The translations under genes were made by a program, and so were the position numbers. The notes below the pieces were generated by a model. It made no database searches. It was given only the letters and a program-made list of their open reading frames with translations, and had not been told where the DNA came from. From Bacillota bacterium (GTDB taxonomy: Bacteria > Bacillota > Sulfobacillia > JAJZYS01 > JAJYTV01), in assembly GCA_021793645.1 (NCBI GenBank), contig JAJYSJ010000003.1, positions 44,993-108,992 of the forward strand: a DNA stretch of 64,000 nt, given 5' to 3'. Below are positions 4,296 through 52,214 of the stretch, one piece after another. Every line of letters starts with the position of its first letter. Position 1 is the stretch's first letter.

Positions 4296-5063
4296 CTAGC
4301 GCCCGATGAAGTGCGGCTTGCGCTTCTCCAAGAAGGCCCGCACTCCCTCCTTCCCGTCCTCGCTCGAGGCTACCTGCGCAACCATTCCCCTGAGGTAGCC
4401 GAGCGCACCCTCGAAGGGAAGATCCTCAACTTCCCAGAGCGCCTCTTTGCCGAGCGCGAGTACGAACGGACTGAGCGACGCGAGCTGCGTCGCCTTCGCC
4501 GCCACGGTGTCCCGGAGCTCTGCCTTCGGCATCACCGCGTTCACGAGGCCAAAGGAAAGCGCCTCCTTTGCGGTCGCGCGCCGCCCGGTGAGGGCAAGGT
4601 CCGTTAGAGCCCGCATGCCGATGAGGCGTGCCAGGGGGGCCATCACAACCATCGGGAAGAGCCCGATCTGCACCTCGGGAAGGCCGAACACCGCGTCCTC
4701 GCCAGCGTAGGCAAGGTCGGCCGCAGCCAGGAGGCCCATCGCTCCCGCGAGGCAATAGCCCTCAACTTCTGCGATCACCGGCTTCGGTGCCCTGCGCATC
4801 GCCCGCACGGCCTCAGCGACGCCGCCGAAATAGTCCCGCCGCGCAGCCATGTCGTCTGCCTGCGCCACTTCTGCTAGGTCGGCGCCCGCGCAAAAGTGTC
4901 CCCCTGCGCCGCGCAGCACGATCACGCGCACTTGCGCGTCCCGCCCAAGCGCATCGAACGCGGCCGCAAGCTGAGTCAAGCTCTCCGCGTCCAAGGCGTT
5001 GCGGCGCTCCGGACGGTTCAGCAGCACCTGCGCGATCTCCCCTGCCTTCACCTCAACTGGCAC
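4296..5063 (-). CDS. Enoyl-CoA hydratase (methylglutaconyl-CoA hydratase-like)
   Basis: Crotonase motifs FCAGADL and FGLPEVQIG; leucine-catabolism context. Confidence 0.88.
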   Translation of the reverse strand: MPVEVKAGEIAQVLLNRPERRNALDAESLTQLAAAFDALGRDAQVRVIVLRGAGGHFCAGADLAEVAQADDMAARRDYFGGVAEAVRAMRRAPKPVIAEVEGYCLAGAMGLLAAADLAYAGEDAVFGLPEVQIGLFPMVVMAPLARLIGMRALTDLALTGRRATAKEALSFGLVNAVMPKAELRDTVAAKATQLASLSPFVLALGKEALWEVEDLPFEGALGYLRGMVAQVASSEDGKEGVRAFLEKRKPHFIGR

Positions 5064-5958
5064 AAGAACCCTCCTCGAACGTTCGCATCACCGACCCGGG
5101 GAGCCGCCGCCCCACCAGGCGCTCCGCGAGCAGGGCCGCCTGGGAGAGCGCACCGAGATCCGTGGCTGTGTCAAACCCCTCCGCCTCGAACAGCCAGGCT
5201 AGGTCTTCCGTGGCGACGTTGCCCGTCGCGCCGGGGGCGTATGGGCAGCCGCCCATGCCGCCGATCGACCCGTCGAAGAGGCGCACGCCTTCTGCCGCGC
5301 CAGCGAGCGCGTTGGCGGGCGCCTGGCCGCGGGTGTTGTGAAAGTGCAGGCCGAGTTGGGCATCGGGCAGTGCGTCCTGCAGCGCCCGCACGAGGCGCCG
5401 GACCATGTGCGGCGCGGCGGCGCCGATCGTGTCTCCGAAGAGCAGCGTGCGGTAGCCGATCTCGTAGAGTCGGCTTGCCACCCGTACGACGTCCGCCACA
5501 GGGGTCTCGCCTGCATACGGGCAGACGAAGCTCGTCGCGACGACGCCCGAGATGGCGCGGCCTGCAGCTCTCGCACGCTCCGCCACCGCCTCTGCCTCCA
5601 AGAGGGATTCCGCGACCGAACGCCGCACGTTCGCCTGGTTGTGCTCCTCCGATGCGGAGAGGAAGAACGTCCACTCGTCGATCTTCGGCACCGCAGCGGC
5701 GCGCTCGGCGCCCCGCGCATTCGGCACGAGCGCGGACCAGATTTGTCCCTCGGGCTTCTGCGCGCTCTTGAGCAGCGCCTCGGCGTCGGCGAGCTGCGGA
5801 ATGGCCTTCGGATGCACGAAGGACGTCACCTCGAGCCGCTCGATGCCGCACCGGCTGACAGCAAAAAGCAGCTGCAGCTTCTCCTCGGTCGAGAGTGTGC
5901 GATCTTCAGCCTGTAGCCCGTCGCGCATGCCCACTTCACGCAGTGTCAGACGGTCCAC
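5053..5958 (-). CDS. Hydroxymethylglutaryl-CoA lyase
   Basis: EVGMRDGLQ, SFVHPKAIPQLAD, LHFHNTRG, GGCPYAPGATGN motifs. Confidence 0.93.
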   Translation of the reverse strand: MDRLTLREVGMRDGLQAEDRTLSTEEKLQLLFAVSRCGIERLEVTSFVHPKAIPQLADAEALLKSAQKPEGQIWSALVPNARGAERAAAVPKIDEWTFFLSASEEHNQANVRRSVAESLLEAEAVAERARAAGRAISGVVATSFVCPYAGETPVADVVRVASRLYEIGYRTLLFGDTIGAAAPHMVRRLVRALQDALPDAQLGLHFHNTRGQAPANALAGAAEGVRLFDGSIGGMGGCPYAPGATGNVATEDLAWLFEAEGFDTATDLGALSQAALLAERLVGRRLPGSVMRTFEEGSCAS

Positions 5959-5970
5959 CGCGATCCCCCC

Positions 5971-7494
5971 CTATACCGGCGGTACGCCGTGCCGCTTCGG
6001 CGGCGGCACCACCTGGCGCTCCTTCGTGGCAGCCAACCGGCGCACGAGCTCCCCGCGCAGCTCCTCCGGCAGCACGATCTGGTCCACGATCAGTTCCGCC
6101 GCAAGGCGGCGGATGTCGATGTCCTCCTGGTAGCGCCTGCGCTCCTCCGCGACGAAGGCAGGGCGCTCTTCTGGGCTGAGCTCTTGGATGTGGTTGTAGT
6201 GGACGGCGTTGACGGCAGCCTCCGGCCCCATTACCGCGATCTGGGCCGTCGGCAGAGCAATCGTCGCCTCCGGCGAGAAGGCGGGTCCCGCCATCGCGTA
6301 GAGTCCCGCGCCGTATGCCTTGCGGACCACGACGCAGTACTTCGGGACCGTCGCCTCGGAGACGGCCGTGATCAGCTTCGCTCCATGGCGGATGATGCCC
6401 TGGCGCTCCACCTTGGTGCCGATCATGAATCCGGGCACGTCGGAGAGGAACACGAGCGGTATGTTGAAGGCGTCGCACAGCCAGATGAAGCGCGCCGCCT
6501 TGTCTGCAGAATCGACGAACAGCACGCCGCCCTTCGCCTTCGGCTGGTTCGCTACGATGCCGACGACCCGCCCGTCCATGCGCCCAAGGCCAACGATCAG
6601 TTCCTGCGCGAAGAGTTCCTTCACTTCGAGGAAGCTTCCTTCGTCCAGGAGCGCCTCGATCAGGAGGTGCATGTCGAAGGGCTGGTTCTGGTTCTGCGGG
6701 ATGATCGCCTGGAGGTCCGCGGCAGGCGGAGCGAGCGGTTTTGCCGCAGCAGGCGCCGTGCGGAAGTTCTGGGGCATCAGCGCGAAGTATCGCCGCGCCC
6801 AGGCGACCGCTTCCTCCTCACTTCCCACAAGCGCGTCGCCGAGGCCGCTGACCGTCGCGTGCATGCGTGCCCCGCCCATCTCTTCAAGGCTTACCTTCTC
6901 GCCGATGACCATCTCCGCCATCCGGGGCGAGCCGAGGTACATGCTGGCGTTGCCCTCGACCATCACCGTCACGTCGGTGAACGCGGGGATATACGCTCCG
7001 CCAGCCGCGCTCGGTCCGAAAAGAATGCAGATCTGCGGCACGCGGCCCGACAGCTGCACTTGGTTATAGAAGATGCGGCCGGCACCGCGGCGGCCAGGGA
7101 ACATCTCCACCTGGTCGGTGATCCGAGCCCCCGCCGAGTCGACGAGGTAGAAGAGCGGGATCTCCAGACGCTCTGCCTGCTCCTGGATGCGCAGGATCTT
7201 TTCGACCGTGCGGCTGCCCCAGGAACCCGCCTTGACGGTCGAGTCGTTTGCCATCACGGCGCAAGGCCGTCCGTCGATGCGGCCGATCCCCGTCACCACT
7301 CCGTCGGCAGGCAGATCGCCCGCGAGGTCGTTGGCGAAGATCCCATCCTCGACAAAGCTGCCCTGGTCCAAGAGCAGGTCGAGGCGCCGCCGGACGAAGA
7401 GCTTCTTGCGCTCCTGGGCCTGGCGGTGGTACTTCTCTGCGCCGCCGGTTTCGATGGCCGCTCGGCGCGCCGCGATCTCGTCGCGACTGCTCAT
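5971..7494 (-). CDS. Acyl-CoA carboxylase carboxyltransferase subunit (methylcrotonyl-CoA carboxylase beta-like, YngE-like)
   Basis: ANDSTVKAGSWG, LVDSAGARI, GPSAAGGAY, DVPGFMIG motifs. Confidence 0.92.
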   Translation of the reverse strand: MSSRDEIAARRAAIETGGAEKYHRQAQERKKLFVRRRLDLLLDQGSFVEDGIFANDLAGDLPADGVVTGIGRIDGRPCAVMANDSTVKAGSWGSRTVEKILRIQEQAERLEIPLFYLVDSAGARITDQVEMFPGRRGAGRIFYNQVQLSGRVPQICILFGPSAAGGAYIPAFTDVTVMVEGNASMYLGSPRMAEMVIGEKVSLEEMGGARMHATVSGLGDALVGSEEEAVAWARRYFALMPQNFRTAPAAAKPLAPPAADLQAIIPQNQNQPFDMHLLIEALLDEGSFLEVKELFAQELIVGLGRMDGRVVGIVANQPKAKGGVLFVDSADKAARFIWLCDAFNIPLVFLSDVPGFMIGTKVERQGIIRHGAKLITAVSEATVPKYCVVVRKAYGAGLYAMAGPAFSPEATIALPTAQIAVMGPEAAVNAVHYNHIQELSPEERPAFVAEERRRYQEDIDIRRLAAELIVDQIVLPEELRGELVRRLAATKERQVVPPPKRHGVPPV

Positions 7495-7700
7495 TCCAGA
7501 ATCACCAGCGCGTCGCCCTCCTGCACGAACGTGCCGGGTTCATGGCAGAGCGATGCGACGCGGCCCCCGTCCGATGCCGTCACCGGCACCTCCATCTTCA
7601 TCGATTCCAGCACGGCGACCTCCTGGCCACTCTCGACCACGTCTCCCACCGCAACGGCGAACCGCAGCAACATCCCCGCCATCGGGCTCTGGATCTCCAC
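7491..7700 (-). CDS. Stand-alone biotin carboxyl carrier protein
   Basis: 69 aa with ESMKME biotinylation motif; AAGGAGG RBS upstream. Confidence 0.9.
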   Translation of the reverse strand: MEIQSPMAGMLLRFAVAVGDVVESGQEVAVLESMKMEVPVTASDGGRVASLCHEPGTFVQEGDALVILE

Positions 7701-7724
7701 GATGCGACTCCTCCTTATGGACTG

Positions 7725-8867
7725 TTAACGCAGCCCCAAGCCGCGGGCGATGACCAGCCTCTGGATCTCGGACGTGCCCTCCCCGATCTCCAGGAGCTTC
7801 GCGTCGCGCATGTAGCGCTCCACGGGATACTCGCGGATGTAGCCGGAACCGCCGTGGATCTGGATGGCCTGTGAGGATGCGCGCATCGCCGCCTCCGATG
7901 CGAAGAGCTTCGCCATCGCGGAAACCTGGCCGAACGGCTCGTGCTGATCCTTGAGCCACGCCGCCTTGTAGACCAGCGTGCGCGCCATCTCTACTTCCAT
8001 CGCCATGTCGGCGATCTTGAACTGGATCGCCTGGAAGCTGCCAATCTTCTGGCCGAACTGTTCGCGCTCCTGAGCGTAGCGCAGAGCGGCGTCAAGCGAG
8101 GCCTGCGCAACGCCGACACCGATCGCACCGATCGAGATGCGCCCGGCGTCCAGCACCTCCAGAAAGCCGCGGAACCCCTCTCCCCGGCCGCCGATCATCG
8201 CGGCATCAGGCACGAAGACGTCCTGCAGTTCGATCTCCGCCGTCTCCGACGCGCGCATTCCCATCTTGTCGTAGGCGGCACTCGGGCGGAACCCTTCCGT
8301 GCCTCGCGGCACAAGGAACGCGGTGATGCCGCGCGCGCCCTTCCCCGGATCCGTGACTGCAGTGACGACCGTCACGCCGGCGGAAACCGCGTTGGTGATG
8401 AAGCTCTTGGAACCGTTCAGGACCCACCCACCGTCCACCTTGTGCGCGCTTGTGCGCGTGCCGCCCGCGTCCGACCCCGCACCGGGCTCGGTGAGGCCGA
8501 ATGCGGCGAGGTATTCGCCGCGCGCCGCAGGCACGAGGTACTGCTCTTTCTGCTCCTCGCTGCCCAGTAGGTTCAGCGAGCCGACGCCCAACGAGACATG
8601 CGCCGCAAAGCTGAGCCCTGTGGAGGCACAGACCCGCGATACCTCCTCAACCGCAATCGCGTATTGGAGGTAGGTGCCCCCAGACCCGCCGTACCGCTCC
8701 GCGACCGGCAGACCCAAGAGGCCGAGTGCGCCCATCTTCTTGAAGATCTCGAGATCAAAGCGTCCGTCGCGGTCGCGCTCCATGGCCCCCGGAGCGATCT
8801 CCGCCTGTGCGAAGTCGCGTACGGTCTCGGCCACCATGCGGTCCTCGGGTGCGAGCGCAAAATCCAT
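7725..8867 (-). CDS. Acyl-CoA dehydrogenase (isovaleryl-CoA dehydrogenase-like)
   Basis: [20 protein letters not shown] and [10 protein letters not shown] motifs. Start moved to ATG 8867 (MDFALAPED) behind a GGAGG RBS. Confidence 0.92.
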
Positions 8868-9010
8868 TCCTTCGCCTCCCGACGCCAATTCTCCATCCAT
8901 ATCCAAGTGCGATTGTAGCGCCAAGAAGGAGCCGCTGAAAGCGGGCCCCTCCGGTAGGCCGGTCGGCACGAGACGAGAAGAGTCCTCTGAACGTGGCCGA
9001 CACGCCGAGG

Positions 9011-9043
9011 CGGGCCGTCCGGCGCGTACGCGCGGACGGCCCG
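9011..9043. other. GC-rich 11-bp stem-loop between osmC-like gene and acyl-CoA dehydrogenase
   Basis: CGGGCCGTCCG ... CGGACGGCCCG inverted repeat; no U-tract, so role uncertain. Confidence 0.3.
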
Positions 9044-9055
9044 TCAAACGAGTCG

Positions 9056-42628: not shown

Positions 42629-43369
42629 CTAGCCCAGCCCGAAATGCTCGCGCAGGCGGCGTGCATTCGCCCGGCTGACGGGTACTTCTTCGCGGCTGCC
42701 CTTCAGTCGCAGCGTGTAGGTGCCGTTGAAGAACGGCACGATCTCCGCAATAGCGTTCAGATTGACGATGTACCCGCGGTGGCAGCGGAAGAACTCCTGA
42801 TCGGGGAGCGTGTCCTGCAGGTCGGCCAAGGTGGCCCGCACCTGCAGGCGCCTTCCTTGGGTGACCAGAAACACCTGGTCCCCCTCCGCGACCAGATAGC
42901 TGACCTCCGCCAGCGGAACTGGGACGGCGCGGTCACCTTGGACTCCCGCGAGAAAGCGCGGCGCGGCCGGAGCTGGTGTGCCAACCAGGTCCTGCTGCGC
43001 TCCACCCCGCAAATGGCGCAGCCGCTCAAGCGTCTCCGCGAGGCGCTCCTTGGAGACCGGCTTCAGCAGATAGTCCACCGCGCCCAGTGAGAAGGCCGGC
43101 AGGGCGTGTGCGTCGTGCGCCGTGACGAAGACGACGTAGGGAGGCCGCAGTCTCCCCTGGTGGAGCTTCTGTGCAAGTTCAAGACCGCTCGCCGACGGCA
43201 TTTGGATGTCGAGGAACAGCACGTCGTACTCGACGGCACGGATCAGTTCCTGGGCCTCGCGCACGTTCGCCGCCTCCCCGATCACCTCGACATCCGGGTG
43301 GCGCTCCAATTGGTAGCGCAGCTCGGCACGGGCAGGCGGCTCGTCATCGACGATCAGGGCGCGCAGCAT
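42629..43369 (-). CDS. LytTR-family response regulator
   Basis: VDDEPPAR, FLDIQMP, YLLKP; LytTR FFRCHRGYIVN...PVSR. Confidence 0.93.
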   Translation of the reverse strand: MLRALIVDDEPPARAELRYQLERHPDVEVIGEAANVREAQELIRAVEYDVLFLDIQMPSASGLELAQKLHQGRLRPPYVVFVTAHDAHALPAFSLGAVDYLLKPVSKERLAETLERLRHLRGGAQQDLVGTPAPAAPRFLAGVQGDRAVPVPLAEVSYLVAEGDQVFLVTQGRRLQVRATLADLQDTLPDQEFFRCHRGYIVNLNAIAEIVPFFNGTYTLRLKGSREEVPVSRANARRLREHFGLG

Positions 43370-44478
43370 CAGTCTTCCTCCGGCAGTTCAAAGGGCAGGC
43401 GCACCAGCACCACAGTCCCCCGCCCCGGGCGGCTGCGCAGGCGAATCTGCCCGCGGCTGCCATAGAGCGCATGCAGCCGCTCATGGACGTTCGCGATGCC
43501 AAGTCCCATCCCCGTGCCTTCGTGCGGCAAGAAGAGGCGGCGCAGACGCGCGCGAGTGATGCCGACCCCGTCGTCGACTACCGCCATCTGCAATTCGACG
43601 CCGCGGCGGCGCAAGGAGACGAGAAGCTGCCCATGGCCGTCCTTGGGCGCAAGGCCGTGGACGATCGCGTTCTCCACGAGAGGCTGCAGAGCGAGGACGG
43701 GGATCAGGGCGGTCTCTACCCCCTGCTCCATCTGCAAGCGCACGGCAATCCGGTCACCGAAGCGAGCCTGCTCAAGGCGCAGGTACTGATGCACGAAGGC
43801 GAGTTCCTCGACGGCGCGGATCTTCTCACCGCGGTAGCTGATCGTATGGCGCAGAAATGCCGCGAGTTCCGTTAGCAGTTCGCGTGCGAGGTCCGGATCG
43901 AACCGGCTGGTGGCGATCACCGTATTCAGCGTGTTGAACAGGAAGTGCGGCCGAATCTGCGCCTGAAGCGCTTCCAGCCTAGCCTGCGCCAGCAGTTCCT
44001 TCTGGCGTTCCACTTCGGACAGTTCGGCCTGCAGCGAAAGGAGTTCCGAGATGCCGATCGCGAGGCGCGTCGCATAGCCGGGCATCGGGCCCGGGTGCTC
44101 GGCGTAGAGCTTGACCGTTCCGACGACCTCTCCTTGCACCTTGAGCGGTGCAATCACTGCTGCCTGCACGGCGCAGGGGCAGCCGGCGATGGGACAGTGC
44201 AGGTCCTGCTTGCGCTCGATGAGCGCGACTTCGCCTGTGCGCAGCACCTGCCGCGTTGCCTTCGTCTGGACCGGCTGGCCCGGCCGCATGTAAGGGCAGC
44301 CCGCACCCTCGTAGGCGAGGATGCGAGCGCTGTCGGTGATCGCCACCGCCTGCACGTGCGCGACGCCAAGCACGATGCGTGCGATGCGCTCCGCCGTCTC
44401 GCGCGTCAGCCCGGCCCAGTAGCCGCGTGCGGCGCGGATCGCCAGTGCGATGTCGAGCGGGCTCACGGGCTCGCCCAT
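43369..44478 (-). CDS. LytS/YehU-type histidine kinase lacking the membrane sensor (GAF plus kinase)
   Basis: LQAQIRPHFLFNTLN, LQPLVENAIVHG, DDGVG, GIANVHERL; no TM segment. Confidence 0.88.
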   Translation of the reverse strand: MGEPVSPLDIALAIRAARGYWAGLTRETAERIARIVLGVAHVQAVAITDSARILAYEGAGCPYMRPGQPVQTKATRQVLRTGEVALIERKQDLHCPIAGCPCAVQAAVIAPLKVQGEVVGTVKLYAEHPGPMPGYATRLAIGISELLSLQAELSEVERQKELLAQARLEALQAQIRPHFLFNTLNTVIATSRFDPDLARELLTELAAFLRHTISYRGEKIRAVEELAFVHQYLRLEQARFGDRIAVRLQMEQGVETALIPVLALQPLVENAIVHGLAPKDGHGQLLVSLRRRGVELQMAVVDDGVGITRARLRRLFLPHEGTGMGLGIANVHERLHALYGSRGQIRLRSRPGRGTVVLVRLPFELPEED

Positions 44479-44506
44479 GGCTCGGCCCCTTCCGCTACGT
44501 TTTCGT

Positions 44507-45694
44507 CTATTCTAGGGCGCCCCGCGCCCGGGGGAAAGACTCTTGGGATCCATCCGGCAGGAGCGCCTTCCGGTAGAGCGCCTCGATCTCCTCGGCGCCC
44601 GCCAGGCGCGGGTTGTGCTGTGGACTGCCGCTTCGTAGGGCGTCGCGCGCCATCTGCGGTGCAAGGCGCCCAAGCCGCGCATCATCGATGCCGAAGGAGG
44701 CAGGATCCGGCAGGCTGCAAGCGGTGCAGATCCGTGCCACTAGCTCTGTTGCCGCCGTGCTCTCCTCCCCGAGCGCCTGAGCGATGCGGGCATAGCGCTC
44801 CGGCGCGGCCGGCAGGTTGAACTCCACGACCGTTGCAAGCAGTAGCCCATTTGCCACGCCGTGCGGCACGCCGAAGCAGGCTCCCAGCGGTCGCGCCATG
44901 CCATGCACCAGAGCGACAGACGCATTGGAAAAGGCCATGCCTGCCTGGAGTGCCCCCAGCATCAGTTCACCCAAGTCCTCCGCTTGCGCCTCGCCCTTGG
45001 CGGCACGCGCGAGATGCGGCGCGAGATGTCTGATCGCCGCGAGCGCCAGGTCGTCCGTCAGGGGCTGCGCCGCGTCAGAGACGAACGCCTCGATCGCGTG
45101 CGTCAGGGCATCCACGCCGGCCCCCGCCGCGGCGGCCGGGGGCGCGGAGAGAAGGAGCTCGGGATCCAGGATGGCAGTCCGTGGAACCAGCAGCGGGCTG
45201 CCGATCAGCATCTTCACCTGCGACCCGTCGTCGCCCGGGCGGGTCACCACGGTGAAGCGCGTCACCTCGGAGCCGGTGCCGGCTGTCGTCGGAATGGCGA
45301 GGACGGGCAGTGCCGCGCGCACCTTGTCCTGCCCCTCGCAGTCTGTGATCGGAGACCGGGTCGCGAGCTGCACCGCGATGGCCTTCGCCGCATCGAGCGC
45401 GCTTCCCCCACCGATGCCGACGACGAGGTCCGCACCCAGCGTGCGCCCGACGAGCGTTCCCTCGTCGACATGAGAGACATGAGGCTCCGCCGAGATACCA
45501 CTGTAGGCTTCGGCCTGCAGTCCGGCCAAGCGAAGGAGGTCCACTGCCGCACCGGCGCGACCGAGAGCAGCCGTCTTGGGGCCGCTGACGACGAGGGCGC
45601 GGCGTCCGAGCCGCACTGCCTCTGCGCCTAGTTCGCGGATCCCGCCCTCGCCGAAGCGCAGGCGAGGAGGCAGAAGGAATGTGCGGGGAAGCAT
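44507..45694 (-). CDS. Iron-containing alcohol dehydrogenase
   Basis: GGGSALDAAK, PTTAGTGSEVT, DALTHAIE, HG...PHG Fe ligands. Confidence 0.92.
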   Translation of the reverse strand: MLPRTFLLPPRLRFGEGGIRELGAEAVRLGRRALVVSGPKTAALGRAGAAVDLLRLAGLQAEAYSGISAEPHVSHVDEGTLVGRTLGADLVVGIGGGSALDAAKAIAVQLATRSPITDCEGQDKVRAALPVLAIPTTAGTGSEVTRFTVVTRPGDDGSQVKMLIGSPLLVPRTAILDPELLLSAPPAAAAGAGVDALTHAIEAFVSDAAQPLTDDLALAAIRHLAPHLARAAKGEAQAEDLGELMLGALQAGMAFSNASVALVHGMARPLGACFGVPHGVANGLLLATVVEFNLPAAPERYARIAQALGEESTAATELVARICTACSLPDPASFGIDDARLGRLAPQMARDALRSGSPQHNPRLAGAEEIEALYRKALLPDGSQESFPRARGALE

Positions 45695-46563
45695 CAGCGC
45701 ATCTCCATTCCGCCAGAGATGTTGAGCGCCTGCCCCGTCATCCCGCGCGAAGCGTCGCTGACCAGGAAGAGTGCGAGGTCGGCAAACTCCTCCGCCTCCG
45801 GAATGCGGCGCAGCGCCGCCATGCGCACCATCTTGTCGCGGATCGCTTCAAAGGGGATGCCGCGGCGGTGCGCGCGTTCACGCCAGACGCGCTCGATGCG
45901 CTCACCCGCGATCGGTCCCGGGCAGATCGCGTTCACCCGGACGCCGTAGCGGCCCACCTCGTGCGCCAGGCTCTGCGTCAGACCGATGAGCGCCCACTTG
46001 GCTGCCGCATACGGCGTTCGGTAGGGATAGGCGCGCTTGCCGAAAATCGAAGACACGTTGAGGATATTTCCCCGGCCGCGCTGCATCATGCCAGGCAGCA
46101 CTGCCTTGGCGCAGAGAAATGCGCTGGTGAGGTCCACTGACAGGGTGCGCTCCCAGTCCTCCACGCTAATCTCGTGCAGGGGCGCGGTGGGGCCGGAGAC
46201 GCCAGCGTTGTTGACCAGGATGTCGACCTGGCCGAACTCCCGCAGGGCGCGATCGAAGAGTCGCTCCACCTGCTCTGGACTGCCTACGTCGGTCGGAACG
46301 GCGAGCGTCTCGACGCCGTGTTCTTTCAGGGACGAGGCTGCGTTCGCCAAGGACTCCTCGCTGCGCGCGGCCAGCACGAGGTGCGCTCCCTCTCGGGCGA
46401 ATGCAGCCGCCGCGGCGAGACCGAGACCCCCGTTCCCACCTGTGATCACCGCAACCCGATCCTGTAGCCGCAATCGCGGTGCGCTCGCTACGCCCTCGCC
46501 CAGTTCCACTTCCTCCCGCGGCAGGGGCACAGCCTCCAGGACTTCCCACTCGCCCATCGCCAC
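45694..46563 (-). CDS. SDR oxidoreductase resembling the N-terminal domain of malonyl-CoA reductase
   Basis: TGGNGGLG, NNAG, NVSSIF...YPYRTPYAAAK, RVNAICPGPI.GERI, GMEM end. Confidence 0.85.
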   Translation of the reverse strand: MAMGEWEVLEAVPLPREEVELGEGVASAPRLRLQDRVAVITGGNGGLGLAAAAAFAREGAHLVLAARSEESLANAASSLKEHGVETLAVPTDVGSPEQVERLFDRALREFGQVDILVNNAGVSGPTAPLHEISVEDWERTLSVDLTSAFLCAKAVLPGMMQRGRGNILNVSSIFGKRAYPYRTPYAAAKWALIGLTQSLAHEVGRYGVRVNAICPGPIAGERIERVWRERAHRRGIPFEAIRDKMVRMAALRRIPEAEEFADLALFLVSDASRGMTGQALNISGGMEMR

Positions 46564-46826
46564 GCCTATTCCCTCCCGCCGGTCCTCGGTCTTGTCATCC
46601 GTAGCCTAGGAGACCAAAACGCCGCCGCCAACGGGCGGACGGCGAACGGGCGGTAGCGGGCGGTGGACGGCATCACCGCGGCAGTGGATGGAACGCAGCG
46701 CACTTTTCGACCGGCCGTCACCCGAGATGACGCTTCACCGGCGTCTGCCCCCCGCTTGCCGGCTTGGCGTTCCCTCCGATGGCATGCCGTGATATGTTGC
46801 GGGCAAGTGTAAGGAGGTGGGCATCC

Positions 46827-49800
46827 TTGCCCCCAGGCGAAGTGCGGCAGCAGACGAACGGCCAGGATCTTGGTCCGCGAACCAATCCGTATGCAGACCC
46901 TGCAGCCTTTGCCGCAGCCCGCCGTAGAGCCGCCGAGGACCCCGGCGCGTTCCACGGGGACATCGCGATCGGTGAAATGCATTTCTTCGACCCTGGGATC
47001 GGGGCGTGGATCCGCCGTCAGGAGAACGGCCGGTTCGAGGCGATCTATCCAGACGGTCACGTCGCCGACTCAGGACTCGGACCAGACTACCGGCCCTGGC
47101 GCGTCGCCTTCGACGACGCGCTTGCACCCTACTTCCGCTGGTTTCTCGGTGCTCAGACGAATGCTTGCTTCAACGAAGTGGACCGCCACGTCGCGCTTGG
47201 ACGCGGCGACGAGATTGCCTTTCACTTCGAGGGCGACCGCTGGGATCCGACTGCGCTGGGCGGCCGCGGCGCGCCGCAGGTTGCGCTTCGGGTCACGCGC
47301 AAGCGCCTTCTCCTGGAGGTGGCGAAGGCGGCTCTCGTGCTGCAGCGCCTTGGTCTAAAGCGCGGAGACCGCATCGTCCTCAACCTGCCGAACATCCTGC
47401 CGCAGATCTACTACACCGAGGCGGCAAAGCGCCTCGGAATCATCTACACGCCTGTATTTGGCGGCCTCAGCGCCAAGACGGTGTCGGACCGGCTAGAGGA
47501 CCTTGGCGCTTGCGCAATGGTCACCGCTGACGGCGGCTACCGCAATGCGCAGATCGTGCCGTATAAGGAAGCGTACGCAGACCCCGCGCTGGACGGCTTC
47601 AGAGCAGTGCGCACGCTGCGGCTGGGGGCGCAGGAAGTGCTGTCGAGTCTGCCGCAGGATGTGCAGGCGCGGCTTTTGGCTGTGCTCGAGCAGGGATTCG
47701 CCGGAGAGATCACCATGGCGCCAAAGGACGCGATGCGGGTCTTCGGCCGGGCCCTCGACGAGGCAGGCGCGCAACTGCCCAGCGATCAACGGGCAGCACT
47801 GCGCATGAGGGCCGCGACGACCTTCGCCTCGCCGGTCAGACGAGTCGACTTTGTCCTCGTTGTGCGGCACACGCGACAGGAGATCCCGTGGCGCCCCGAG
47901 CGCGATGTCTGGGCGCACGAACTCGAGGCGCAGGCCGCCTCTGCTCTTTTGTCCAGCGCACGTTCCGCAGGCTTTGCCGCCGCGGACGAGGAGCAGCTGC
48001 TCGCGCTGGCAGACCAGGACTTCTTGCGCGCGATCTGGGCATCCAGTCTCCCGGAGCCCGTCGAAGCGAACTTTCCGCTCTTCGCGATCTACACGTCGGG
48101 CAGCACCGGCAAGCCGAAGGGGGTCGTTCACGTCCACGGCTACCTCGGAGGACTTGCGCACACCATGCGTGCAGCCTTCGGTGCGCATCCTGGTGACGAC
48201 GTCCTCTACGTGATCGCCGACCCTGGCTGGATCACCGGCCAGTCCTACATGATCGCCGCAGCCCTCGCAGCGCGCATCCCCAGCGTCGTCGCGGAAGGGG
48301 CGCCTGTCTTCCCGACGGCGGGACGCTTCGCGAGCATCATCGAGCGCTACGGCGTGACGATCTTCAAGGCGGGCGCGACGTTCCTCAAGGGCATCCTCGC
48401 CGACCCCGCGGCTCAGGATGAGGTGCGCCGCTACGATACAGCGTCGCTCCGCGTCGCTACCTTCTGCGCCGAGCCCGTCAACCCAGTCGTGCAGCGCTTC
48501 GCGATGGATCTCCTCTGCGAGGCGTACGAGAACTCCTACTGGGCCACGGAGCACGGCGGCATCGTCTGGACCCACCCTTACCGGAACCCCGATGCCCCTG
48601 TGCGACCGGACGCACATACGTACCCGCTGCCTTGGGTGCAGGGCGATGTCTGGGTCGAGACCGGCGCGCAGCCGGACGGGCGCCGCCAGCACCGCAGGGC
48701 GCAGGATGGCGAAAAGGGCGAGATCGTGCTCAAAGCGCCGTATCCGTACCTTGCGCGTACGGTCTGGGGCGACCCGGACCGCGTGCTTGCCCCAGAATGG
48801 CGCGGCGACGCAGAGCGCTGGGCCAAAACGTACTGGACGCGGTGGGCAGACACGCTCGCTTACACGCAAGGCGACTTCGCCTGCCGCTATGCGGATGGAT
48901 CGTTCACCCTGCACGGCCGCTCTGACGACGTGATCAACGTGGCGGGCCACCGCATCGGGACAGAGGAGATCGAGGGAGCCATCTTGCGCGATCGCCAGCG
49001 CAATCCGGCCTCCCCCGTGCGCAACGCAGTCGTGATCGGAGCGCCGCATCAGGAGAAGGGCCTGGTGCCGGTCGCGTTTGTGCAGACTGCACTCGGCCGC
49101 CCGCTGACGGATCAGGACCGCATGCGCCTCGATCAGTTGGTGCGCAGCGAGAAGGGCGCCGTGGCCGTACCGGGCGACTACATCGCGGTGCAGGAGTTCC
49201 CGGAGACGCGCAGCGGCAAGTATATGCGGCGGCTGCTCGCAGACCTTCTGCGGGGCGAGGCGTCGGGGGATACCACGTCGCTGCGCAATCCGGAGTCGCT
49301 GACCGCGATCCGCCCCCTCGTCGATCGCTGGCGGGAGCGCGAAGCGCTGCGCGCGAGCCAACAGGTGATCGAACGCTTCCGCTACGTGCGTGCGCAGTAC
49401 CTCACCGCGGCGCCAGGCCGTGAAGTGGCGCTGGTGACAGTCGAAAGCCCGCCCGTCAACGCGCTGAACGAGCGCACGCTCGACGAACTGCTCACGCTGG
49501 TCGACCGACTGGCGCAGCGTGAAAGCGTCGCAGCCGTCGTCTTTACCGGCGCGCGTGGCTTCGTCGCTGGTGCTGACGTGCGTCAACTACTGGAGGAGAT
49601 GCAGGAGGCGGGCGACGTGCTGCCCCTCTCCCACAAGGCGCAGCGACTCTTCTCCGCGATCGAGGGCATGGGCAAACCCGCCGTCGCCGCTGTGCGCGGC
49701 GTCGCCCTGGGTGGTGGCAACGAGTTCCAGATGTCAACGCATTACACGGTAGCGGAGCCGGACGCGCAGTTCGGCCAGCCGGAAATCAACCTGCGCCTCT

Positions 49801-52214
49801 TGCCCGGGTACGGAGGGACCCAGCGCCTTGTACGCCTGCTGCACGCGGCAAGCGGCGTGCACGGCGTCATCGAGGCGTTGCGTCTGATCCTCGGCGGCCG
49901 CACCCTGGATGCCCAAGCGGCACTGCGCATCGGGCTCGTGCACGAGGTGGCGCATGAGACCGATGCGCTGTCGCGCGCGCTCGCCCTGGCGCGCGGCCAT
50001 GCGCGCGGCGAGGATGACACTCTTGCCAAGGCGCTTTCGCGGCGCCGGGCCCTCGTCGCGACATACGATCAGCCGCTCGTACTCCCCACGGACCTCCTGG
50101 AAGACCAAGAACTCCTGCGCATCCTTGCACAACTTGCGGCCACGGGACGCGGGGAGGCGGCGAATCGGACACTCGATGCGGTCCGCACCGGTCTCATGCA
50201 GGGGACCGGCGCAGGCCTGCGCGCCGAGGCGGATCACTTCGCCCAAGCCGTTGTCGACCCCCAAGGCGGACGCCAAGGCATACGCGACTTCCTTGACCGC
50301 GTCAGCCCCAACCTGCCGACCCGTGCACCAGGCGTCGGGCCCAAGGATGCCCCCGCGGAACTCGAGGCGCGGGGTGATCTTTTGCCTCCCGGCAGCCCAT
50401 TCTACCCAGGCTTCACTCCTCTGCCCCTCTGGCAGTACGCCTACGGCGTCCGCCGCGATCCCGAGACGGGGGCGCCGCGCCATGGGGACCCCCTGCAGGC
50501 GGAGGAGCGCATGATCGTGCCAGTGGAGGTAATCGCGTCGGATGAGGCGCTCGTCTACATGCTGGCGAGCGACGTCAACTTCAACGACATCTGGGCGGCG
50601 ACAGGCATTCCCGTCTCCCCCTTCGACAGCCACGACGAGGATGTCCACATCAGCGGCAGCGGCGGCGTTGGACTGGTAGTCGCGCTTGGCGAGGCGCTGC
50701 GCCGCGAAGGTCGGCTGGAGATCGGGCAGGTCTGCGTCGTCTATCCGGGGCAGTCCGACCCCTTCTCGCCAGACGCCGGTCTGGACCCGATGGCAGCGAA
50801 CTTCCGCATCCAGGGCTACGAGACGCCGGACGGCAGCCACCGCCAGTTCCTCAAAGTGCAGGGAGCGCAGCTCCTGCCAAAGCCGGAGGGTGCGAGCCTC
50901 GAAGCGAGTGCAGGCTACCTGCTCGCACTCGGAACCGTCTACCGAGCCCTCTACACCACCCTGCGCGTTGCACCCGGAGGGCTCTTGTTCTCCGAAGGAG
51001 CTGCGACAGGCACGGGGCTCGAGGCCGTGAAGGCTGCCTCCCGCGACGGGGTGGCGGTCGCAGGCATGGTCTCCAGCGACGCACGTGAACGCGCAGCCCG
51101 CGAGGCAGGCGCAAGTGTCGTGGTGCGCCGCGACGCACCGGAACTGCAGGGCATCTTCACGCCGGTGCCAGAGAACGCTGCACTATGGCATGCGTGGGAA
51201 GTGCAAGGCGAACCGTTCGTGGCGGCCCTTCGCGCCCAGGGGAAGGGGCGGCTGCCAGACTACGTGCTCTCCCACGCCGGAGAAACCTCGTTCCCGCGCA
51301 GTTTCCAGGCGCTCGCCCCAGGCGGCCGCCTCGCTTTCTTCGGTGCCTCCTCCGGCTACCACTTCACCTTCATGGGCAGGCCGGGCTTCCTTACCGCCGA
51401 CGCCGCAGCGAGACGCGCAGAACTGCGCTCGGGCGACGCGGTGATGGTCTACTACGGCGTTGGCAGCGACGACGTCGAAGACCCTGTCGGCCTTGAACTC
51501 GTCGAGGCGGCACGTGTATGCGGCGCTCGCATCGCCCTTTGGACCCGCACGGACGCCCAGGCCGAGTTCGTGCAAAGCCTTGGATACGGCGACGCCCTTG
51601 CGGGCGCCGTCAGCCTTGAGGAGATCATGCGCCGCCGGGGCGACGGGTTCATCTGGCCCAGCACCATGCCGCCGCTGCCGGATCCCAGGCAAGAGACCGC
51701 CGCGTTCAAGGAAGCCGTACGCCGGTTTCAGGAATTCACCTTCAAGCCCGTGGGAGAGGCGATCGGCAAGCTGCTGCGGGGGCCGCGCAACCCCCGCGGT
51801 CAGCCGGACGTCATCTTCGAACGCGCCAGCCACGACGCTCTTGCAGTCAGCGTGATGCTGGTCCGGCCCCTGACGGGGCGAGTCGTCTACTGTGAGGAGA
51901 CGGCAGGCCGCCGCTACAGCTTCTTCGCTCCTCAGGTCTGGATGCGCCAGCGCCGCATTCTCCTGCCGAATGCGGAGATCCTCGGCACGCACCTGTGCAA
52001 CTCCTACGAGGCGCAAGAGGTTACGAGGGATGTGGCCGCAGGCCGTTTCCAACTGACCGAACCCGTCCTTGTACCGTTCGATGGGCTGCCGCAAGCGCAT
52101 CAGGAGATGTGGGAGAACCGACACGCAGGCGGCAGCTACGTCGTCGATCATGCACTTCCGCGCAGCGGCCTGAAGAGCGTAGATGAACTGTATGCCGCCT
52201 GGGCGCAGCGCTGA
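46827..52214 (+). CDS. pcs: Trifunctional propionyl-CoA synthase (acyl-CoA synthetase + enoyl-CoA hydratase + enoyl-CoA reductase), about 1,795 aa
   Basis: ACS motifs YTSGSTGKPKG, FCAEP, YWATEHGG, ETRSGK; crotonase PPVNAL, FVAGAD, GGGNE, GQPEINL..LPGYGGTQR; MDR/CCR-like DVNFNDIWA, GYETPDGS, GAATGTG, MWENRH. TTG 46827 after AAGGAGGTG. Confidence 0.9.
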   Translation: MPPGEVRQQTNGQDLGPRTNPYADPAAFAAARRRAAEDPGAFHGDIAIGEMHFFDPGIGAWIRRQENGRFEAIYPDGHVADSGLGPDYRPWRVAFDDALAPYFRWFLGAQTNACFNEVDRHVALGRGDEIAFHFEGDRWDPTALGGRGAPQVALRVTRKRLLLEVAKAALVLQRLGLKRGDRIVLNLPNILPQIYYTEAAKRLGIIYTPVFGGLSAKTVSDRLEDLGACAMVTADGGYRNAQIVPYKEAYADPALDGFRAVRTLRLGAQEVLSSLPQDVQARLLAVLEQGFAGEITMAPKDAMRVFGRALDEAGAQLPSDQRAALRMRAATTFASPVRRVDFVLVVRHTRQEIPWRPERDVWAHELEAQAASALLSSARSAGFAAADEEQLLALADQDFLRAIWASSLPEPVEANFPLFAIYTSGSTGKPKGVVHVHGYLGGLAHTMRAAFGAHPGDDVLYVIADPGWITGQSYMIAAALAARIPSVVAEGAPVFPTAGRFASIIERYGVTIFKAGATFLKGILADPAAQDEVRRYDTASLRVATFCAEPVNPVVQRFAMDLLCEAYENSYWATEHGGIVWTHPYRNPDAPVRPDAHTYPLPWVQGDVWVETGAQPDGRRQHRRAQDGEKGEIVLKAPYPYLARTVWGDPDRVLAPEWRGDAERWAKTYWTRWADTLAYTQGDFACRYADGSFTLHGRSDDVINVAGHRIGTEEIEGAILRDRQRNPASPVRNAVVIGAPHQEKGLVPVAFVQTALGRPLTDQDRMRLDQLVRSEKGAVAVPGDYIAVQEFPETRSGKYMRRLLADLLRGEASGDTTSLRNPESLTAIRPLVDRWREREALRASQQVIERFRYVRAQYLTAAPGREVALVTVESPPVNALNERTLDELLTLVDRLAQRESVAAVVFTGARGFVAGADVRQLLEEMQEAGDVLPLSHKAQRLFSAIEGMGKPAVAAVRGVALGGGNEFQMSTHYTVAEPDAQFGQPEINLRLLPGYGGTQRLVRLLHAASGVHGVIEALRLILGGRTLDAQAALRIGLVHEVAHETDALSRALALARGHARGEDDTLAKALSRRRALVATYDQPLVLPTDLLEDQELLRILAQLAATGRGEAANRTLDAVRTGLMQGTGAGLRAEADHFAQAVVDPQGGRQGIRDFLDRVSPNLPTRAPGVGPKDAPAELEARGDLLPPGSPFYPGFTPLPLWQYAYGVRRDPETGAPRHGDPLQAEERMIVPVEVIASDEALVYMLASDVNFNDIWAATGIPVSPFDSHDEDVHISGSGGVGLVVALGEALRREGRLEIGQVCVVYPGQSDPFSPDAGLDPMAANFRIQGYETPDGSHRQFLKVQGAQLLPKPEGASLEASAGYLLALGTVYRALYTTLRVAPGGLLFSEGAATGTGLEAVKAASRDGVAVAGMVSSDARERAAREAGASVVVRRDAPELQGIFTPVPENAALWHAWEVQGEPFVAALRAQGKGRLPDYVLSHAGETSFPRSFQALAPGGRLAFFGASSGYHFTFMGRPGFLTADAAARRAELRSGDAVMVYYGVGSDDVEDPVGLELVEAARVCGARIALWTRTDAQAEFVQSLGYGDALAGAVSLEEIMRRRGDGFIWPSTMPPLPDPRQETAAFKEAVRRFQEFTFKPVGEAIGKLLRGPRNPRGQPDVIFERASHDALAVSVMLVRPLTGRVVYCEETAGRRYSFFAPQVWMRQRRILLPNAEILGTHLCNSYEAQEVTRDVAAGRFQLTEPVLVPFDGLPQAHQEMWENRHAGGSYVVDHALPRSGLKSVDELYAAWAQR

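Follow-up and report, generated by a model that had tools for sequence, protein, structure and literature searches.

A short-chain dehydrogenase and an alcohol dehydrogenase linked to propionyl-CoA synthase in Bacillota and Chloroflexota: a candidate two-protein malonyl-CoA reductase

The 64,000-nucleotide stretch of Bacillota bacterium DNA analyzed here (contig JAJYSJ010000003.1, positions 44,993 to 108,992; hereafter, the window) carries a gene for a classical short-chain dehydrogenase/reductase (SDR) followed by one for an iron-dependent alcohol dehydrogenase (Fe-ADH), the pair being transcribed divergently from pcs, the gene for propionyl-CoA synthase (Pcs). Comparison with related loci supports the view that the SDR-ADH pair is functionally tied to Pcs, through a link that outlives gene rearrangement across lineages whose SDRs are 52-78% identical. 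We consider it modestly probable that the two proteins together make up a split malonyl-CoA reductase, the SDR producing malonate semialdehyde and the ADH producing 3-hydroxypropionate (3-HP). This departs from the original prediction, in which the SDR, thought to resemble the N-terminal domain of Chloroflexus malonyl-CoA reductase (MCR), would reduce malonate semialdehyde by itself and feed Pcs. The features on which that prediction was built are all present: the SDR segments NVSSIFGKRAYPYRTPY and RVNAICPGPIAGERIERVW, the GMEM end (...GGMEMR), the one-base overlap with the Fe-ADH gene and the divergence from pcs. The window also lacks an MCR C-terminal domain, as had been stated; a tblastn search of the whole 64 kb with full-length MCR matched the SDR gene alone and revealed no MCR-specific sequence.

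Gene context, which provides the decisive evidence, was read at twelve loci encoding members of the SDR clade or of its sister group. The clade comprises 24 clusters at 90% identity, with an SH-aLRT value of 94 and at least 52% identity. An ADH gene lies directly downstream of the SDR gene at 11 of the 12 loci, mostly of the Fe type and of the zinc type (Zn-ADH) in L018 and L104, and the pair adjoins pcs in four gene arrangements. In the window and in L001, L008-L010 and L016, pcs is divergent from SDR-FeADH. In L011-L013 (SDR 61% identical), SDR, FeADH and pcs form a co-directional operon in this order, and a gene for methylmalonyl-CoA mutase is close by. In L018, a metagenome-assembled genome (MAG) of Dehalococcoidia (56%), bioA-bioB-birA is divergent from SDR-ZnADH-pcs. 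In L104:2748-17459 (52%), bioB-birA is divergent from SDR-ZnADH-pcs-accC-BCCP (biotin carboxyl carrier protein), followed by genes for CitE/malyl-CoA-lyase-like, SucC-like and SucD-like proteins, an Ich-like hydratase and a family III CoA-transferase; by gene content this looks like a 3-HP-bicycle-like cluster, with the SDR-ADH pair where mcr would be and a thiokinase-type ligase. In Aneurinibacillus uraniidurans and two relatives (58-59%), the order is SDR-FeADH-accD-accA, then etfBA-fixCX, and both AccD and AccA pass equivalog cut-offs. The Aneurinibacillus species encode Pcs away from the pair; in accession AP017312 (L101:9071-16241) the pcs gene is solitary, without adjoining mcr. A locus with a sister SDR (L103:945-6891; 57%) reads AbfD-SDR-FeADH-acyl-CoA ligase-LytTR regulator, the AbfD (4-hydroxybutyryl-CoA dehydratase) scoring 525-534 bits against 1U8V and 6VJR. 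At L102:5898-16749 (62%), the SDR gene has no ADH neighbor and lies about 3.6 kb from PucR-MmsA-PreT-PreA-dihydropyrimidinase-carbamoylase-type genes, a PucR-regulated cluster (MmsA, PreT/PreA-like dihydropyrimidine dehydrogenase, dihydropyrimidinase, CN-hydrolase) whose pathway ends in malonate semialdehyde.

Some of these loci have further features of their own. In A. uraniidurans (CP116902; L014:10001-18017), the genes after SDR-FeADH-accD-accA are etfB-etfA-fixC-fixX, and upstream, in divergent orientation, are genes for an aminoacetone-oxidase-family flavoprotein, a DUF294/CBS protein and a DUF485+SSF transporter. The solitary pcs of L101 has uracil-DNA-glycosylase-family genes on both flanks, resembling an insertion, and the 8 kb upstream are without called genes. 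In a 'Chlorobiales' MAG (L005:5314-11567), the Pcs frame is split in two open reading frames (ORFs) separated by a gap of about 700 bp, which could reflect a frameshift, an insertion or an assembly fault; its flanks hold neither mcr nor an SDR-ADH pair.

A metagenome scan with the clade alignment gave outgroup SDRs only (37-52% identity), and these were used as a negative control. At the 80 outgroup loci, of which 53 extend 1.5 kb or more downstream, no ADH, Pcs or Acc gene was nearby; the recurrent neighbors, encoding an amidohydrolase, DUF4136, ABC-F and DUF481 proteins, have no metabolic link to the module. Co-occurrence of the SDR and ADH with pcs, which had been proposed as a check, is borne out by the position of the pair beside pcs in several lineages and by these outgroup counts. 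In Pcs-bearing genomes of other phyla, mcr itself takes the place of the pair: a full-length mcr lies directly upstream of pcs in L003 (Bdellovibrionota; an MCR of 1,214 aa) and in L004 (Parachlamydiales), and Roseiflexus has an acc-mcr-pcs operon (PMC5459899). No named Bacillota appear among the best 120 of 662 matches in the list of MCR homologues, which is weak evidence for the absence of mcr from these genomes.

In the Pcs tree, the Pcs proteins linked to an SDR-ADH pair are spread over three or more lineages, those of the window group, of L011, and of L018 with Aneurinibacillus, the last of them nested beside mcr-linked Pcs of Chloroflexia and Bdellovibrionota, and the SDR tree is roughly congruent with it. 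Hence either the association goes back a long way or it arose repeatedly. With a midpoint root and a long L011 branch, the rooting is uncertain; the topology allows that the fused MCR is no older than the split form.

The window protein is a classical SDR, with matches to Pfam adh_short/adh_short_C2 (1.2e-64 and 1.2e-60), the segments ITGGNGGLG and VNNAG, the S170/Y183/K187 triad and a Rossmann fold. Residues are numbered as in alignment A1, from the database variant P0001, which starts at the ATG at 46557 and has 287 aa; an exact look-up of the P0001 sequence found no database record. Key elements are S170, Y177-P-Y-R180-T-P-Y183-AAA-K187, the lid G-E-R-I-E-R-V-W and the C-terminus GMEMR. Across the clade S170, Y177, R180, Y183 and K187 are invariant, giving the signature S...YxxRxxYxxxK together with the lid GxRIERxW, and the C-terminus G(M/T)EMR is clade-specific (23 of 24 members, 1 of 96 outgroup SDRs). 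The best single-domain match in the PDB is 5UNL, at 185 bits, with FabG/3-hydroxybutyrate dehydrogenase types at 130-157 bits. The protein passes the generic FabG subfamily cut-off and stays below those for 3-hydroxybutyrate dehydrogenases (PRK12429, 225.5 bits vs 258; TIGR01963, 224.7 vs 307). A Foldseek search with an AlphaFold2 model (pLDDT 84.7) placed FabG and 3-hydroxybutyrate dehydrogenase folds on top, with MCR absent from the top 50, a result that cannot separate the hypotheses considered below.

The structure of Roseiflexus MCR shows a YXXRXXY motif common to both catalytic domains, which binds malonate semialdehyde in SDR1 (Y172, R175, Y178) and the malonyl moiety in SDR3 (Y743, R746, Y749); malonyl-CoA is held by an extra domain (Arg799, Arg785) and by Arg1164 of SDR4 (PMC10470521). 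The similar segments noticed in the Chloroflexus N-domain are real: SDR1 of that MCR reads NVSTIFSRAEYYGRIPY ... RVNTIFPGPIESDRIRTVF ... GMEL, the window SDR aligns with SDR1 over its full length, lid helix and GMEL/GMEM end included, and it has the YxxRxxY motif and the S-Y-K triad of the MCR N-fragment. The kinship, however, is not specific to the N-domain. BLASTP against verified MCR gave 33% identity to SDR1 and 35% to SDR3. The profile alignment that had been suggested as a check likewise put the SDR nearer the generic outgroup (hhalign, 770) than SDR1 (365; 257 columns, 33%), with SDR3 at 333-347 (190 columns, 39%); the Rossmann core is slightly nearer SDR3 (39%) than SDR1 (33%). In the PDB search SDR1 scored 95.7 bits and either MCR domain about 95, with some 600 ordinary SDRs scoring higher. 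YxxRxxY is shared by SDR3 and by 68 of the 96 outgroup SDRs and is therefore not diagnostic of the N-domain.

The protein is moreover a single domain of 289 aa, without the tandem SDR1 and pseudo-SDR2 architecture of the MCR N-fragment, and SDR1 is not its nearest relative in either sequence or structure comparison. As for the MCR C-fragment, neither the extra domain nor Arg1164 of SDR4 has a counterpart; the SDR3 alignment stops at the lid, where the extra domain begins, and R220 is the equivalent of Arg785, but this Arg is conserved in SDR1 too. That the SDR is a diverged MCR N-domain was rejected on two grounds: both MCR domains fall outside the SDR family in the tree, and profiles are nearer the generic outgroup. 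It is about equally distant from the two catalytic MCR domains, with generic 5UNL-type SDRs as nearest relatives. R65 and D90 correspond in the alignment to the Arg and Asp with which MCR contacts NADP, and NADPH is therefore the likely cofactor.

The Fe-ADH belongs to group III, with GGGS, DALTHAIE and HG...PHG (D..H / H..H metal ligands) found in all Fe-type partners. It scores below every NCBIfam equivalog cut-off (ErcA, FucO, GbsB, 4-hydroxybutyrate dehydrogenase), and its nearest PDB entries are methanol dehydrogenase, 1,3-propanediol oxidoreductase and FucO. Fe-ADH partners are 36-75% identical between loci and the SDRs 52-78%; a variable ADH beside a steadier SDR fits a generic aldehyde-reducing partner with a specific SDR. 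A role of the L018 and L104 Zn-ADH as acrylyl-CoA reductase was rejected: the protein has an ADH_N catalytic-zinc domain, alcohol dehydrogenase families match it best, and Pcs has its own reductase. The semialdehyde-dehydrogenase fold with active-site Cys that marks archaeal malonyl-/succinyl-CoA reductases is found in neither the SDR nor the Fe-ADH.

Several considerations lead us to read the pair as a split malonyl-CoA reductase, namely its position, the presence of two reductases for two reductions, the precedents in the two families and the logic of L103. The pair is placed between genes for making malonyl-CoA (subunits of acetyl-CoA carboxylase (ACC), biotin ligase and synthase) and the 3-HP-consuming Pcs; malonyl-CoA and 3-HP are two reductions apart, and two reductases are present. 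Between the SDR and ADH families, precedent for conversion of an acyl-CoA to an aldehyde appears to lie solely with the SDRs, as in SDR3 of MCR; fatty-acyl- and cinnamoyl-CoA reductases are SDRs that perform this type of reaction. Fe-ADHs and Zn-ADHs, for their part, offer precedents for semialdehyde reduction, including 4HbD and the succinic semialdehyde reductase of Metallosphaera, and the Nitrosopumilus Fe-ADH Nmar_1110 is given as a proven malonic semialdehyde reductase (Otte 2015, as cited in PMC5797428). The accD-accA, accC-BCCP and birA/bioB contexts point to malonyl-CoA as the source; the supply of semialdehyde from beta-alanine or uracil proposed originally would fit L102 only. L103 is a candidate for a parallel module, one carbon longer, leading from succinyl-CoA through succinic semialdehyde, 4-hydroxybutyrate and its CoA ester to crotonyl-CoA. 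In Clostridium kluyveri, SucD holds the place that the SDR holds in L103.

From these contexts and precedents we infer the substrates, the assignment of each enzyme to its step and the direction of flux. Using NADPH, the SDR would convert malonyl-CoA to malonate semialdehyde, the chemistry of SDR3 in the C-terminal part of MCR; the ADH would then reduce malonate semialdehyde to 3-HP, like the MCR N-domain and Nmar_1110; and the divergently transcribed Pcs would take 3-HP to propionyl-CoA. It is tempting to extend this scheme and to envision the stand-alone classical SDR of about 260 aa as a CoA-acylating dicarboxylyl-CoA reductase, acting on malonyl-CoA here and on succinyl-CoA in the L103 sister, that together with an interchangeable ADH replaces MCR in bacteria. 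We put this wider proposal forward tentatively, as a possibility that falls somewhat short of being probable.

Some observations weigh against a split malonyl-CoA reductase. In MCR, CoA is held by the extra domain and by SDR4, and the SDR has neither; its fold is that of a plain classical SDR, and its lid and C-terminal part align solely with SDR1, the alcohol-forming domain. Because the clade loci are related by descent, they cannot be counted as independent events; accDA in Aneurinibacillus could be the housekeeping copy; and sequence does not fix the direction of flux. Finally L102, with its cluster for converting uracil through beta-alanine to malonate semialdehyde and its SDR without an ADH, would fit a plain semialdehyde reductase. 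This leads to the alternative closest to the original prediction, in which the SDR, as an MCR-N-like or YdfG-like enzyme, reduces malonate semialdehyde on its own and supplies Pcs with 3-HP, beta-alanine or uracil being possible origins of the semialdehyde, and the Fe-ADH has another or a redundant role. The full-length alignment with SDR1 through the lid helix and the GMEL/GMEM end, the YxxRxxY motif and the classical small-substrate SDR fold would all agree with such an enzyme. We nevertheless find it unlikely, since it would leave the near-constant ADH, including its exchange for a Zn-ADH in L018 and L104, without a role. In the accDA, accC-BCCP and birA/bioB contexts it also leaves the semialdehyde without a source, no aminotransferase or pyrimidine-catabolism gene is found near the module in the window, and the L103 operon would hold two semialdehyde reductases and no succinyl-CoA reductase. 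Of the claim that the SDR feeds Pcs, the tie of the pair to Pcs and 3-HP and the presence of YxxRxxY thus stand, and it is the stand-alone, MCR-N-like semialdehyde reductase that has become less likely.

The pair might also work in the opposite direction, with the ADH oxidizing 3-HP, the SDR using CoA and NADP+ to form malonyl-CoA (for lipids, or for acetyl-CoA via a carboxyltransferase) and Pcs serving as the reductive branch. Rhodobacter assimilates 3-HP through a reductive and an oxidative branch, and the step in which NAD(P)H reduces an acyl-CoA to the aldehyde is endergonic, the sum of the two steps being near equilibrium; in the window the pair and pcs are divergent, not serial, and a carboxylate-type transporter (DUF485 + SSF) is encoded near the Aneurinibacillus operon. 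Yet the co-directional SDR-ADH-pcs-accC-BCCP operons and the biotin genes better fit carboxylation followed by reduction, the NADP-type Arg and Asp are those expected of a reductive, biosynthetic enzyme, and no uptake gene adjoins the module in the window, all of which makes oxidative flux seem quite improbable to us. We give still less credence, to the point of holding it very improbable, to the notion that the substrates are others: propionyl-CoA converted to propanal and propanol after Pcs, a 3-hydroxyacyl-CoA or 3-hydroxybutyrate-type dehydrogenase, or merely shared regulation. One could invoke here 5UNL, the closest relative in the PDB, whose label is beta-hydroxybutyrate dehydrogenase or ketoacyl-ACP reductase, the score over the generic FabG subfamily cut-off, and the possibility that the L103 SDR acts as a 3-hydroxybutyryl-CoA dehydrogenase after AbfD. 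Such substrates would leave the link with accDA, accC-BCCP and biotin genes unexplained; a substrate that bears a carboxylate is indicated by the conserved Arg of YxxRxxY, the SDR scores below the cut-offs of the 3-hydroxybutyrate dehydrogenase models (225 vs 258 and 225 vs 307 bits), and outgroup SDRs of the same fold are without ADH, Pcs or Acc contexts.

A split malonyl-CoA reductase would resemble the MCR of Chloroflexus and Roseiflexus (8HJW, 8HI4; four tandem SDR domains) in its proposed overall NADPH-dependent reaction, from malonyl-CoA via malonate semialdehyde to 3-HP, in its genomic niche beside pcs and acc, and in SDR catalysis with S/T-Y-K, YxxRxxY and a lid G-(D/E)-R-(I/L)-x-R. 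Whereas MCR is one protein of about 1,220 aa, we find here an SDR of 289 aa and a separate, unrelated Fe- or Zn-ADH; the pair has neither pseudo-SDR domains nor the extra domain, and MCR, at 33-39% identity, is never the nearest relative. Closer in design would be the archaeal split system (the malonyl-/succinyl-CoA reductase of Metallosphaera and Sulfolobus with Msed_1993; Nmar_1110 of Nitrosopumilus), which also uses two proteins for two reductions, provides the precedent for the Fe-ADH step, and has parallel malonyl and succinyl versions, as the window module and L103 may have. Its CoA-ester reductase, however, resembles aspartate-semialdehyde dehydrogenase and is not a classical SDR, and the hosts here are bacteria (Bacillota, Chloroflexota) in which the pair goes together with Pcs, a bacterial fusion enzyme. 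L103 recalls the SucD, 4HbD, Cat2/AbfT and AbfD set of C. kluyveri and C. aminobutyricum through its AbfD, an Fe-ADH at the place of 4HbD, a CoA-activating enzyme and the SDR at the place of SucD; it differs in that SucD is of the ALDH family and that the Clostridium genes include a CoA-transferase where L103 has a ligase. 5UNL, a structural-genomics entry from Burkholderia multivorans, shares YxYRTPYAAxKW and an Arg-rich lid with the SDR; 5UNL-type outgroup proteins lack the GxEMR C-terminus and the ADH, Pcs and Acc contexts. The SDR is set apart from 3-hydroxybutyrate dehydrogenases by their cut-offs, and from E. coli FabG and YdfG, the latter a known malonic semialdehyde reductase, by the absence of YxxRxxY from both.

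The features of the locus are listed in Table 1. Pcs is full length (about 1,800 aa) with three domains, giving 2018 bits to the Erythrobacter structure 6EQO over residues 45-1814; the Pfam order AMP-binding, ECH, ADH_zinc_N on a single polypeptide is that of a Pcs, and its homologues carry this name. The pcs frame is open from 46764, and the start is most likely the TTG at 46827, preceded by a putative ribosome-binding site, AAGGAGGTG. At the SDR/Fe-ADH junction, the TGA stop and the ATG start have the A at 45694 in common (cgcTGATGctt), and this 1-nt overlap is predicted to couple translation of the Fe-ADH to that of the SDR. The histidine kinase encoded by the third gene is 88-89% identical in L001 and L008-L010, where it has the same position, and the LytTR regulator is 48% identical to the one after the sister SDR-ADH module in L103; among close relatives these two are the best-conserved proteins of the locus. 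The kinase is likely the sensor that controls the module, and the two proteins would probably act on the divergent promoters.

Table 1. Features of the SDR-ADH-pcs locus (positions in the window)
Feature	Position	Strand	Remarks
LytTR-type response regulator, fourth gene of the SDR-ADH operon	42629..43369	minus	Pfam Response_reg + LytTR
Soluble GAF + LytS-type histidine kinase, third gene of the operon	43369..44478	minus	Pfam GAF, His_kinase, HATPase_c
Group III Fe-dependent alcohol dehydrogenase, 395 aa	44507..45694	minus	Pfam Fe-ADH + ADH_Fe_C
Classical SDR, 289 aa	45694..46563	minus	GTG start; Pfam adh_short_C2 1.2e-64
Divergent intergenic region between SDR operon and pcs	46564..46826		alignment of four lineages; not SDR-coding
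Propionyl-CoA synthase, trifunctional (3-HP-CoA synthetase, dehydratase, acrylyl-CoA reductase)	46827..52214	plus	6EQO match; Pfam

The intergenic region, aligned with those of three related lineages, contains conserved blocks and may serve as control region for both the SDR operon and pcs. A direct repeat GTGGAYGG (46663-46670 and 46684-46691), conserved in the four lineages, has a 21-bp period, a spacing typical of LytTR operators, and the repeats are candidate LytTR boxes. The region also holds an extended -10-like element, TGATATGTT; a simple sigma-70 scan of this GC-rich sequence found no promoter. The rest of the window has features of spore-forming Bacillota (PrkA, SpoVR, DUF444) and 65% G+C, and the nearest Pcs loci are in 'Bacillota bacterium' MAGs. 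DNA near-identical to positions 44400-48400 is found in metagenomic runs from mine tailings, mine drainage and an aquifer, and all runs in which the locus turned up are of DNA, none of RNA. Elsewhere in the window (4296-9047, minus strand) lies a leucine-catabolism-like cluster encoding an enoyl-CoA hydratase, HMG-CoA lyase, carboxyltransferase and acyl-CoA dehydrogenase; no biotin carboxylase to go with it was seen among the window ORFs scanned.

MCR chemistry, the two-protein logic of the archaeal hydroxypropionate/hydroxybutyrate cycle and the Fe-ADH step are already known. What we did not find described is a bacterial two-protein system with a small classical SDR as CoA-ester reductase, paired with Pcs in Bacillota and non-phototrophic Chloroflexota; the literature searched held nothing relevant on a stand-alone malonyl- or succinyl-CoA reductase of the SDR type, on Pcs in Thermaerobacter or Aneurinibacillus, or on alternative MCRs. 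A small malonyl-CoA-reducing SDR would be of interest for 3-HP production, in which the large MCR is a bottleneck, and the hypothesis is open to direct testing since Aneurinibacillus can be cultivated.

The 3-hydroxypropionate bi-cycle is recognized by two diagnostic enzymes, MCR and Pcs (PMC5459899). Surveys of carbon fixation score genomes by the presence of the two, and the survey consulted does not list Bacillota for either; Pcs clusters number about 1,200, as against about 660 for MCR. If the pair is indeed a split malonyl-CoA reductase, part of the Pcs clusters would belong to organisms that make 3-HP without MCR, spore-forming Bacillota among them. Thermaerobacter-like MAGs, Aneurinibacillus and non-phototrophic Chloroflexota would then have a route from acetyl-CoA and CO2 through 3-HP to propionyl-CoA, and such routes, including the 3-HP-bicycle-like cluster of L104, would escape pathway surveys keyed to mcr. 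The SDR would also provide a candidate enzyme type for the malonyl- and succinyl-CoA reductases still missing from pathways of the hydroxypropionate/hydroxybutyrate type.

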